Counted from the first letter of the stretch, positions 25,940-30,000 are shown. The stretch: 32,000 bases of DNA from Candidatus Saccharimonadota bacterium (GCF_964059045.1 NZ_OZ060402.1:570001-602000); one strand, 5' to 3'. Notes: generated by a model not told the origin, from the letters alone. Translations and numbers: made by a program.

Positions 25940-25975
25940 AACAGAAAAAATAAATAGAGTTTTATTTTTTCTGTT
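25940..25975 (-). terminator. ilvDC terminator candidate
   Basis: aacagaaaaaataaa (25940-25954) is the exact reverse complement of 25961-25975, with a 6-nt loop. On the minus strand it is followed by a T-rich run and lies 31 nt after the ilvC stop. Confidence 0.55.
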
Positions 25976-26006: not shown

Positions 26007-27479
26007 TTATTTTACAAAAATAGTTTTCATATTTTTCATTTTTTTTCTTAATTTTTTTCCAATAATTTCAATAGGATGATTTTCAATTTCTTGATTGATC
26101 TTATATAAATCAATATTATTAATATCATGAGAAATGATTTTATGACCCATGTCACCATACTGTAAATTTTTTAAAAAATTTTTTAATATAGGAATTGCTG
26201 AATTAGAAAACAAATAACTACCATATTCTGCAGTATCAGAAATGATTAAATTCATTTCATATAACCTTTTTCTTGAAATTGTATTAGCAATTAAAGGAAG
26301 CTCATGCAATGATTCATAATAAGCAGATTCTTCAATTATACCTGCATTAATCATAGTTTCAAATGATAATTCCACACCTGCTTTAATAATTGCAATCATA
26401 AAGTTAGAAAAATCAAAATATTCTTGTTCTAAAATAGTACCATTATAAGAAGGAGCGTTCTCAAAAGATGTTTTTTTTGTATCTAATCTCCATTTTAGTA
26501 AGTCAATATCATTATTGTTCCAATCATCCATCATTTTAGAAGAAAAAGATCCAGATAGAATATTATCCATATGTTGTTGAAATAATGGTGTTAAAATAAT
26601 TTTTAATTGATTAGATAAATAACATACCCTTATTTTTGCATTATTAGATATTCTATCTAACATTAAAGTAATACCTCCATGTTTTAAAGATTCTGTTAAA
26701 ACTTCCCATCCATTTTGTATTAGTTTACAAGCAAATGCTATATTATGTCCTTGTTCAACAAGATATTCATAACAAATCAAACTACCTGCTTGTAACATAC
26801 CACATAAAATAGTTTGTTCTCCCATTAAATCTGATTTTACTTCTGCAATAAAAGAAGATTCTAAAATACCTGCATGATGACTACCTATAGCAACTGCCCA
26901 TGCTTTAGCAATTTCTAATCCAATTTTTTGGGGGTTATTTTTATTATGGACTGCTATTAATGTTGGAACTCCAAAATTCCTTTTATATTCTTCGCGCACT
27001 TCAGAACCTGGGCATTTAGGAGCAACCATAATAACTGTGATATCTTTTCTAATTTTTTCTCCCATTTCTACAATGTTAAATCCATGAGAATATCCTAAAC
27101 ATGAGCCATTTTTCATTAATGGTTGTATTTTTTGTATGACTGAATGGTGTTGTTTATCTGGAGTTAAATTAATTACTAAATCAGCAGTAGGAATAAGATT
27201 TTCATAAATATCTACAACAAAATTATTTTTAAATGCATTTTTCCAAGACATGGTTTTTGCTTGAATTGATTCTTTTCTTAAAGCAAAAGAAATATCTAAT
27301 CCAGAATCTCTCATATTTAAACCTTGATTTAAACCTTGAGAACCACAACCAATAATTACTATTTTTTTTTCTTTTAAAAAAGAACAATAATTTAAGAATT
27401 CTTTTTTTTTCATTAAACGACATTTTTTTAATTCAATTAATTTTTCTCTAAAATTTAAACTATTAAAATAATTTTTCAT
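26007..27479 (-). CDS. ilvC: ketol-acid reductoisomerase (NADP+)
   Basis: From the ATG at complement 27477-27479, [14 protein letters not shown] aligns with E. coli [64 protein letters not shown] and [14 protein letters not shown] also match. The ORF-track start 12 nt upstream is a TTG and was not used. Confidence 0.95.
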
Positions 27480-27576
27480 TTTTTTTTCCAAAATATACTA
27501 ATATATTATTAATAATAATATCAAAAAACAATTGATGTATATGAATAAAAAATTATAAAAATTTAAATAATTTCTA

Positions 27577-29433
27577 TTAAAAATTTAATTTATTTACATC
27601 ACGAACAGCACCTTGATCAGCACTAGTAGCTAAACATGAATATGCTTTTAAAGCATTTGAAATAATTCTCTTCCTTTGAACATAAGGTGTATATGCTTGA
27701 TTGTTTCTTGATTCTTCTATATCTTTACGTGTTAATAATTCTTGATTTGTTACTTGTAATTCAATAGTTCTATTTGGAATATTAATCATGATTACATCAT
27801 TATTTTGAACTAGTGCAATTATTCCTTTATTTGCAGCTTCAGGCGAAACATGTCCTATAGATAAACCTGATGTACCTCCTGAAAATCTACCATCGGTAAT
27901 TAAAGCACAAGATTTATCTAATCCCATAGATTTTAAATATGTTGTAGGATATAACATCTCCTGCATACCAGGTCCACCTTTAGGACCTTCATATCTAATT
28001 AAAATAATATCACCTGATTGAATATAATTATTTAAAATTGCATATACAGCATCTTCTTGACTTTCATATACTTTTACTGGTCCTTGAAAAACATAATTTT
28101 TTTTATCTACGCCAGAAGTTTTAACAATACATCCATTTTTAGCAATATTACCATATAACACTGCTAAACCACCTTGTTGACTATAAGCATAATCAATAGA
28201 TCTTATACATCCAAAACGACGATTGGTATCAAGTTCATCCCATCTAAATGATTGAGAAAAAGGAATTACTGTTTTAATTCCCATCGGGCCAGCACGATAC
28301 ATCTTAATAATATCAAGATCTTTATTATTTATTATATTATATTTTTTTATTGTTTCTTCCAATGTTATTTGTAAAATATTTTTAACTGTAGTATCTAATA
28401 AAAAAAAATTATTTAATTCACCTAAGATTCCCATAACACCTCCAGCTCGATGCATGTCTTCCATATGGTAAATTGATGAACTCGGTGCTATTTTACAGAT
28501 ATTAGGTATTTTTTTAGATAAATCATTAATATCTGACATATTAAAATCAATATCACCTTCTTTTGCTGCTGCTAGTAAATGCAATACAGTATTGGTTGAT
28601 CCACCCATTGCTATATCTAATTTCATTGCATTATGAAAAGAATTTTTACAAGCTATATTACGTGGTAAAACATTATAATTATCATTATGATAATAAGCTT
28701 TTGTAATATCTACAATTGTTTTACCTGATTGTACAAATAGTTTTCTCCGATCAACATGAGTGGCAAGTAATGTACCATTACCTGGCAATGCTAATCCTAG
28801 TGCTTCCATTAAACAATTCATTGAATTAGCAGTAAACATTCCGGAACATGAACCACATGTTGGACAAGCAGAGTCTTCTATTTTTTTTGACTCTACATCA
28901 GATACATTAGGATTGGAACCTTGAACAATGGCATCAATTAAATCTATTTTTACAATTTCATTTTTTTGATTTAATATTCTTCCTGCTTCCATTGGTCCAC
29001 CAGAAACAAAAACAGATGGAATATTTAGACGTAAAGCTGCCATTAACATTCCAGGAGTAATTTTATCACAATTTGAAATACACACCATAGCATCAACACA
29101 ATGTGCATTAATCATATATTCAATAGAATCTGCAATAATTTCTCGGGATGGTAAAGAATACAACATCCCAGAATGTCCCATAGCAATACCATCATCTATA
29201 GCAATTGTATTAAATTCTTTAGATACACCACCAGAAGATTGAATGGATTTTGCTACAATATTACCTAATTCTCTTAAATGAATATGACCTGGGACAAATT
29301 CTGTGAAAGAATTAACGATAGCAATAATTGGTTTTTGAAAATCTAAATCTGTCATTCCAGTAGCTTTCCATAAAGCTCGAGCCCCTGACATATTTTTACC
29401 ATGAATTGTTGTAGCGGATCGATATTGAGGCAT
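27577..29433 (-). CDS. ilvD: dihydroxy-acid dehydratase
   Basis: The 618-aa ORF begins [63 protein letters not shown] and [22 protein letters not shown] match E. coli IlvD. A strong AGGAG lies 6 nt upstream of the ATG. Confidence 0.97.
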
Positions 29434-29444
29434 ATTAAACTCCT

Positions 29445-29574
29445 TTTTAGATCATTACAGTGTTAATTAAAAACAAGGTTGAATCTAGTTAAAACAATAT
29501 ATTATTAGGCCTAATAATATATTGTTTTAACTAGATTCAACCTTGTTTTTAATTAACACTGTAATGATCTAAAA
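29445..29574. repeat. 130-bp perfect palindrome (65-bp arms, zero spacer, centre AGGCCT) between tRNA-Trp and the ilvD ribosome-binding site
   Basis: All 65 pairs were checked by hand. 29445-29509 is the exact reverse complement of 29510-29574, and 29444/29575 mismatch. The arms contain many G/C positions (for example caaggttgaatctag), so this is not A/T low complexity. Confidence 0.95.
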
Positions 29575-29592
29575 TTTATTTTAAATTTTTTA

Positions 29593-29666
29593 ACAAAGGT
29601 GGAGGGAATTGAACCCACAACCCTCGGTTTTGGAGACCGATGCTCTACCTAATTGAGCTACACCTT
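29593..29666 (-). tRNA. trpT: tRNA-Trp (anticodon CCA), 3' CCA not encoded
   Basis: The reverse complement is aaaggtgtagctcaattaggtagagcatcggtctCCAaaaccgagggttgtgggttcaattccctccacctttg. The acceptor is aaaggtg/caccttt with discriminator G. The anticodon arm is identical in form to E. coli tRNA-Trp. There is one T-T mismatch in the T stem. Downstream is tta, not cca. Confidence 0.88.
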
Positions 29667-30000
29667 TAAAATATTTATATATATTATTTTAAATAATTAA
29701 AAATAAAACAATAATATTAATTATACTATAATTAACAAAATAATTACAGTATATAAAAATATATTTTGAATAATACATCATAACTATATCAAAAGTTATT
29801 TAATTAAATTGTATTATTTGTAATGATTTTAAAATAAAAATTAATCCAATAATTCTTGTTCAAAAAATATATTTAGTAGTATAATGAATAATATACTAAA
29901 TTAATAACAATATTATATTTTATAATTATTTAATTATTTAATCAAATTAAAAAATCAGTTAAATGTTTAAAATACTAAATTAAAAATTGTTGAGGTTCAA

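Follow-up and report, generated by a model that had tools for sequence, protein, structure and literature searches.

Quasi-palindrome mutations, which are described as ones that "universally perfect the palindromic sequence", arise by a template switch in which one arm of an imperfect inverted repeat templates the other (PMC6357072), and template switching can both make perfect stems in a single event and maintain them (PMC8794818). How base-paired stems survive under random mutation is an old puzzle, and template switching has been proposed as an answer mainly from inferred events in rRNA. The palindrome upstream of ilvD that we describe here shares with these systems (the Ripley model, the E. 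coli thyA and lacZ QP reporters, and the cases of Monttinen & Loytynoja 2022) a perfect repeat, multi-base changes on both sides, a lack of wobble intermediates, and identity that extends outward. Those cases are short (about 10-20 bp), and are single events or inferred in rRNA stems, whereas ours is 100-130 bp long and perfect across species at saturation, with a mechanism that we infer.

Rho-independent terminators downstream of tRNA genes, which are often bidirectional, offer another likeness, since at our locus too the hairpin follows the tRNA (by 10-23 nt) and has a G/C stem base, a T-run, and an upstream A-run that mirrors it. In contrast to such terminators, the stem runs about 20 bp past the T-run to the Shine-Dalgarno sequence (SD), leaving the full hairpin with no T-tail; it is also 2-5 times longer, has a poor T-run in the Buchnera of Eriosoma lanigerum, and allows no space for a downstream promoter. 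The stems processed by RNase III (e.g., rRNA operon flanks and phage T7 R1.1-type sites) likewise set a long duplex between a stable RNA gene and a downstream RNA. RNase III needs roughly 20 bp of dsRNA, and in E. coli the distal gene of rrnC is tRNA-Trp. The RNase III sites found in nature are as a rule imperfect, and their internal loops guide the enzyme to one cut, whereas our palindrome is perfect. Human Y-chromosome palindromes and plastid inverted repeats resemble it in having arms that are identical within a genome and diverge between species; they are, however, kilobase-scale, spacered, and dependent on recombination, whereas here the arms make up 130 bp with almost no spacer in a bacterium reported to be without RecA. 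Finally, REP/BIME, Correia, and other dispersed palindromic repeats are also extragenic and hairpin-capable, but ours is a single-copy locus in 32 kb, found at an orthologous position in a pattern of vertical inheritance and with no sign of mobility.

The window, by which we mean the whole 32,000-nt stretch of DNA that we analysed, carries this palindrome between tRNA-Trp and ilvD (Table 1). The window belongs to the Buchnera symbiont of Eriosoma grossulariae, and its IlvD protein was 100% identical to protein P0001 of Buchnera aphidicola (Eriosoma grossulariae); the next-closest IlvD was that of the Buchnera of E. lanigerum (81% identity), and all others were at about 70-75%. Downstream, ilvD is followed by ilvC, rep, trxA, and rho, all on the minus strand, and iscS-iscU is divergent, on the plus strand from 30001. 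The hairpin just past ilvC looks like an ordinary terminator and likely marks the end of the transcription unit; a comparable imperfect hairpin lies 3' of ilvC at the E. lanigerum locus. As a side observation, the E. grossulariae tRNA-Trp gene does not encode CCA, its acceptor end reading ...CACCTTTG and then TTA, and that of E. lanigerum (L081 2804-2880) does encode CCA.

Table 1. Coordinates of the palindromes and neighbouring features in the window
Feature	Coordinates	Strand	Description
rpmE (L31)	6729-6932	-	SD adjoined by the palindrome at 6941-7031
Second perfect palindrome	6941..7031	.	43-nt arms, 5-nt spacer; ends AAAAA against the GGA of the rpmE SD
Hairpin	25940..25975	-	15-nt perfect arms, just past the ilvC stop
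ilvC (ketol-acid reductoisomerase)	26007..27491	-	Downstream of ilvD; NCBIfam NF003557, 867 bits
ilvD (dihydroxy-acid dehydratase)	27577..29433	-	NCBIfam NF009103, 1083 bits
ilvD Shine-Dalgarno AGGAG	29440..29444	-	Adjoins the palindrome directly, unpaired
Palindrome	29445..29574	.	130 bp, perfect, zero spacer, centre AGGCCT; exact reverse-complement match
Core, ilvD-proximal arm	29465..29480	-	AACCTTGTTTTTAATT (16-nt core: AACCTTRTTTTTAATT); G/C-pair stem base then T-run, terminator-like
Core mirror, tRNA-proximal arm	29539..29554	-	AATTAAAAACAAGGTT (mirror of the 16-nt core: AATTAAAAAYAAGGTT)
Linker between tRNA-Trp and hairpin	29575..29592	-	18 nt, A/U only, UAAAAAAUUUAAAAUAAA
tRNA-Trp (CCA anticodon)	29593..29668	-	Upstream of ilvD; ARAGORN; Rfam tRNA 68.7 bits

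When 29445-29509 was compared by script with 29510-29574, each was the reverse complement of the other at 65/65 pairs with zero spacer, as the original prediction had it, including the AGGCCT centre; on the ilvD-sense (minus) strand the 5' arm runs from 29574 to 29510 and the 3' arm from 29509 to 29445. That prediction was also right about the surroundings, with tRNA-Trp 18 nt away, AGGAG adjoining, and all three elements on the minus strand, and about the mixed composition of the arms, which have a GC content of 21.5% (22.3% for the window) and are neither low-complexity nor an A/T run. The G/A bases of the ilvD SD AGGAG, at arm positions 66-68 and 70, break the symmetry, and a repeat search picked up the same palindrome as 75-nt arms with 95% complementarity. 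The longest perfect arm to arise by chance was 11-18 nt (30 block shuffles of the window; loop of at most 40 nt). The RNA fold of the palindrome was -88.5 kcal/mol, against -22.3 +/- 3.7 for shuffles (z = -18), and its DNA fold was -63.1 kcal/mol (z = -22). Because shuffles reach only such short arms and both folds lie far beyond those of shuffles, we excluded chance as the origin of the palindrome. The predicted RNA stem is continuous over 63 bp with a 4-nt loop (GGCC), so that the earlier description of a structure with no loop holds for the DNA, with its zero spacer, but not for the RNA hairpin; the same description was correct that a U-tract is missing, as the full stem runs straight into AGGAG. 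On the plus strand the palindrome has the tail TTTATTTTAAATTTTTT, and a proposed role in blocking antisense transcription lost its footing since this plus-strand T-run is not conserved in relatives.

Searches with a 30-mer of the arm and with the core motif found no match in the 32-kb window beyond the palindrome itself, and we rejected a dispersed (REP/MITE-like) repeat on the basis that arms and core are unique in this stretch. Rfam 15 gave nothing at or above the gathering threshold for the palindrome, the sub-threshold matches being to generic long-hairpin models of miRNA precursors (one of these matches scored 60.9 bits, the threshold being 230). A replication origin or skew switch at the palindrome was likewise rejected, as GC skew tracks gene orientation and an origin signal is absent.

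We compared the orthologous tRNA-Trp-ilvD spacers of the window and 13 other Buchnera-type loci. Perfect palindromes were present in the Buchnera of E. lanigerum (locus L081, OZ060395.1; 2891-2990, 49-nt arms, 2-nt spacer) and of E. harunire (L002/L094, CP188086.1; 2892-2990, 49-nt arms, 1-nt spacer), so that the check on sister species that had been suggested returned both arms in each. In all three Eriosoma Buchnera the palindrome takes up nearly the whole spacer, starting 10-23 nt past the tRNA (E. lanigerum has a 10-nt linker and E. harunire a 23-nt one) and ending 0-1 nt short of the ilvD SD, which reads AGGAG in E. grossulariae, AGGTA in E. lanigerum, and AGGAA in E. harunire. With the SD just outside the stem in 3/3 species, the suggestion that the palindrome occludes the ribosome-binding site was not upheld. 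The 11 other trpT-ilvD spacers (from Pemphigus, two Tetraneura, Mollitrichosiphum, Chaitophorus, Periphyllus, and further Buchnera from NCBI/Logan) were all palindrome-free, with perfect arms of 15 nt or less, and across 656 kb of comparison loci perfect arms of at least 30 nt were found nowhere except in these palindromes. An NJ tree of IlvD placed the three Eriosoma Buchnera in one clade with Tetraneura as sister; since the palindrome occurs in this clade and is missing from the others, it is a shared derived character of the Eriosoma-Buchnera clade. We also considered an ancestral terminator seed in the sister genus; this was unsupported, as a hairpin after tRNA-Trp is not conserved in Tetraneura (15-20 bp of A/T stem in T. 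akinire and none in T. ulmi).

Some other features of these loci are recorded here in their own right. In a Buchnera-like symbiont whose IlvD is 73% identical, two independent metagenome assemblies (L085 1-120 and L086 1-100) end in a 34-nt tandem repeat, ACATATAATACAGTAACATGAGAGTAAGTGTCTT, which lies ~60 nt upstream of ilvD and is a different type of repeat in the same spacer. The Tetraneura ulmi Buchnera locus from NCBI (L092) and that from Logan run ERR13998916 (L093) differ by 4 SNPs in 4,860 nt, which suggests two different samples or strains. Scanned for the core-loop-core pattern, metagenomes yielded a single hairpin, unrelated and a chance match (L091 209-250; 13-bp arms, A-tract/T-tract), upstream of a gene pair, the first ORF of which has a P-loop (GxxGxGK) ATPase motif as judged by eye.

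For the three Eriosoma species, 34 arm positions anchored at the SD could be aligned ungapped. Pairwise identity between species in this block was 68-71%, and all 102 cells (34 pairs in three species) were Watson-Crick paired. In 15 of the 34 pairs both sides had changed in one or more species, with no one-sided change and no unpaired position; none of 500 shuffles equalled this, and slid partners were 32-52% paired. No G·U pair or mismatch occurred in the 163 pairs of the three palindromes (65+49+49), and many of the swaps were between A-U and U-A or between G-C and U-A, with no G·U intermediate. Identity at ilvD four-fold sites between species was 0.46-0.49, compared with about 0.42-0.47 expected at saturation from composition, so the palindrome remained perfect while neutral sequence turned over completely. 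The palindrome is real, old, and confined to the Eriosoma clade; it directly adjoins the SD, and its arms, which contain a conserved core, co-evolve with no wobble. The alternative in the original prediction that the palindrome is maintained is thereby supported, perfect arms having been kept in three species despite saturated four-fold sites. Perfect Watson-Crick symmetry without wobble points to arm-to-arm copying at the DNA level and not only to selection on RNA, and, contrary to the premise of the original prediction, AT-biased mutation need not erode a perfect repeat if the arms continually copy each other. Perfect arms could also stem from mismatch repair acting in an extruded hairpin, or from strong selection for pairing.

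Within the arms, 13/16 positions of the core were invariant in the three species, compared with 6/18 in the outer arm; the part inside the core varies in length, with about 29 nt in E. grossulariae versus 12-15 nt in the others, and in sequence. Copying between arms, if unbiased, does not lower the rate of substitution, and purifying selection therefore appears to act on the core, whereas the remaining arm need only be symmetric. The core consists of a stem base, AAGGTT/AACCTT, with G/C pairs, followed by RTTTTTAATT. After AACCTT the tract reads GTTTTTAATT in E. grossulariae, ATTTTTAATT in E. harunire, where a consensus scan flagged it as terminator-like, and AATTGTAATTT in E. lanigerum, where it is interrupted. 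A scan of the window for canonical terminators called none. As the core resembles a terminator stem base and T-tract, the palindrome may be a leaky terminator or a processing hairpin between tRNA-Trp and ilvDC. The interrupted T-run of E. lanigerum is a weak point of the terminator reading, and if termination at the palindrome were efficient, ilvD would need a promoter of its own, of which none is recognisable.

Matches to sigma-70-like promoters in or near the palindrome occurred only at the shuffle expectation in 3/3 Eriosoma species. By hand we could align -10-like hexamers in the outer arms (TGTAAT / TACAAT / TAAAAT), 10-13 nt before the SD, with the -35 partner absent, and a promoter inside the palindrome was rejected on these grounds. 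An ilv-type leader-peptide attenuator was rejected as well, as we found one dominant hairpin and no credible ORF, the only ORFs of at least 20 aa touching the spacer being two mirror-image 21-aa artefacts that enter from the flanks. Anti-SD pairing between CCUU of the proximal arm and the ilvD SD was dismissed by inspection, since it would involve 4 bp across a ~30-nt loop.

The window contains a second perfect palindrome, at rpmE (Table 1), with an RNA fold of -54.7 kcal/mol (z = -13), and both of these independent long palindromes stop exactly at an SD. The rpmE palindrome was absent from the orthologous rpmE spacers of E. lanigerum (L089) and E. harunire (L090), where perfect arms of at least 14 nt were found nowhere in 5.5 kb each; as judged by these comparisons it is young and specific to E. 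grossulariae, and its presence in this species only indicates that palindrome birth is ongoing in the lineage. When we looked for an ancestral arm of the rpmE palindrome, alignments to the E. lanigerum and E. harunire spacers were no better than shuffles. Further perfect hairpins with 15-25-nt arms lie in other spacers (6669-6727, 4726-4813, 12335-12377, 2843-2882, and 25940-25975), most of them terminator-like and just 3' of rpmE, pgi, or ilvC or between convergent genes; the pgi-orn spacer, unusually long at 1.3 kb, contains the pair at 4726-4813, whose 25-nt arms are separated by 38 nt. Elsewhere in the window, a 359-aa ORF at 12426-13505 (minus) had no NCBIfam match at E <= 1e-10.

On balance we lean, by no great measure, towards an explanation in which an inherited palindrome is kept up by template switching, grows outward to the SD, and has a role in termination or processing; template switching as the engine, the limit on growth, and the terminator or processing role are the parts that we infer. 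A foldback would have been born once, in the common ancestor of the Eriosoma Buchnera, and would have been vertically inherited thereafter, with the 16-nt core as its seed and its sole sequence-constrained part. The engine would be replication template switching (intra-strand fold-back copying), by which a substitution in a single arm would soon be erased or copied to the other arm, and the palindrome would stay Watson-Crick perfect despite drift in sequence, turnover at the centre, and a gradual outward movement of the ends. The mirrored transversions, the lack of wobble, the variable centres and lengths, and the recurrent birth of palindromes argue for such copying at the DNA level rather than for RNA-pairing selection alone. 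Outward growth would halt at the ilvD SD because further symmetry would cost the SD its sequence or draw it into the stem, and this limit would account for the three orthologues and the independent rpmE palindrome all ending at an SD. To our knowledge, Buchnera is also without SbcCD. It has been reported to be without RecA and nearly all homologous-recombination proteins (PMC1193525). If RecA, the recombination proteins, and SbcCD are indeed absent, a long palindrome would be tolerated rather than cleaved.

At the RNA level, this explanation would make the palindrome a leaky terminator or attenuator that also marks a processing boundary, with the strongly transcribed tRNA-Trp on one side and the ilvDC message on the other. 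Since no separate ilvD promoter is visible in the sequence, ilvDC is probably expressed by read-through from tRNA-Trp. Immediately 5' of the SD, the read-through leader would carry a perfect duplex of 49-65 bp, an expected target for cleavage by RNase III; with its predicted stem of 63 bp, against the length of about 20 bp or more of continuous dsRNA for RNase III, the modelled palindrome transcript is a plausible RNase III site.

Four other explanations were weighed against this one. That the palindrome is a sequencing or assembly fold-back artefact, or else a very recent one-off duplication in the strain, as the original prediction had allowed, seems to us scarcely credible. The genome of the window is a single assembly, neither its IlvD nor that of the closest relative, P0002, is on record in Logan assemblies, and graph assemblers may over-perfect near-palindromes; on this last point, the 100% perfection that we report is to be read with the caveat that De Bruijn graph assemblers may homogenise a near-perfect palindrome (bubble popping). 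Homologous palindromes with the same boundary nevertheless occur in two other species, in separate assembly records, and their arms have diverged between species yet are mirrored within each. Moreover, a Logan k=31 contig of E. harunire reads (L095 1-40) ends exactly k-1 = 30 nt into the ilvD-proximal arm, a de Bruijn signature that would be expected if the inverted repeat is in the raw E. harunire reads, and the Logan contig matched the NCBI record over 3,379 nt with no difference. With homologous palindromes at the same position in three Eriosoma Buchnera and ilvD four-fold sites saturated, the palindrome is neither an assembly or whole-genome-amplification artefact nor a recent accident. 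A function at the DNA level, such as a cruciform, a protein-binding site, or a bidirectional promoter for the divergent ilvDC and iscSU, is in our estimate improbable. Both strands are perfectly symmetric, the palindrome lies between these divergent transcription units, and its outer arms hold the -10-like hexamers given above; the promoter-like matches are nonetheless at chance level with no -35 partners, tRNA-Trp intervenes between the palindrome and iscS, the core motif is found nowhere else in the window, and no known binding-site consensus was matched.

Selection on pairing in an RNA element, by which the tRNA-Trp-ilvDC co-transcript would carry an RNase III site, an element that stabilises the 5' end of ilvD or modulates its translation, or both, is an explanation that we consider unlikely, although several observations are consistent with it. 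The element keeps its position next to the SD and persists through saturating divergence, 15 pairs are compensatory, the 65-bp perfect duplex is far above the need of RNase III, the linker after the tRNA is A/U-rich as in tRNA precursors cut by RNase E, and a separate ilvD promoter is not recognisable. Selection of this kind would tolerate G·U pairs and bulges, yet none occurred in the 163 pairs, and the A-U/U-A and G-C/U-A swaps have no wobble intermediate to pass through. In addition, 49-65 bp far exceeds any known need for processing or stabilising, selection is weak in Buchnera, length and centre vary by species, and the recent rpmE palindrome points to a mutational process. This last observation, together with the perfect symmetry without wobble, the variable length and centre, and a Buchnera without RecA, also fits a neutral, self-perpetuating DNA structure in which arm copying outpaces mutation and deletions are rare in the static Buchnera genome. 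We find a wholly neutral structure quite unlikely, as 13/16 core positions are invariant amid saturated neutral sites, which unbiased copying would not bring about, and the palindrome fills the spacer almost completely in 3/3 species.

Our literature search found no earlier description of a palindrome upstream of ilvD. A study of Buchnera intergenic spacers reported conserved hairpins and terminators, with ilvD and palindromes unmentioned. The ingredients (quasi-palindrome correction, terminator hairpins, and RNase III stems) are already known; as far as we have found, what is apparently new is their combination in a single-copy 100-130-bp palindrome that is bounded by an SD and whose perfection at an orthologous site has outlasted saturating divergence, in a reportedly RecA-less bacterium. 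Such a palindrome offers an unusually clean natural setting in which to test, in bacteria, whether arms copy each other and how palindromes grow and are tolerated. On the practical side, palindromes of this kind break short-read graph assemblies right at gene starts and could pass for artefacts.

The explanation that we favour, of template-switch upkeep with a role in termination or processing, can be extended to what may be called a palindrome ratchet, a doubtful proposal that we offer tentatively. In a symbiont without recombination, and possibly without hairpin nucleases, template switching would create intergenic palindromes, maintain their perfection for tens of millions of years, and expand them until they meet an SD; the ilvD copy would then have been co-opted, its core and duplex setting how much tRNA-Trp read-through becomes translatable ilvDC mRNA by way of attenuation and RNase III processing. 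Should the core indeed attenuate or process the tRNA-Trp-ilvDC transcript, it would join the small number of known cis-regulatory elements for amino-acid biosynthesis in Buchnera. If the ratchet itself is true, the palindrome would be a rare cis-regulatory device in a nearly regulator-free genome, acting at a step of branched-chain amino-acid biosynthesis that is central to the aphid symbiosis.
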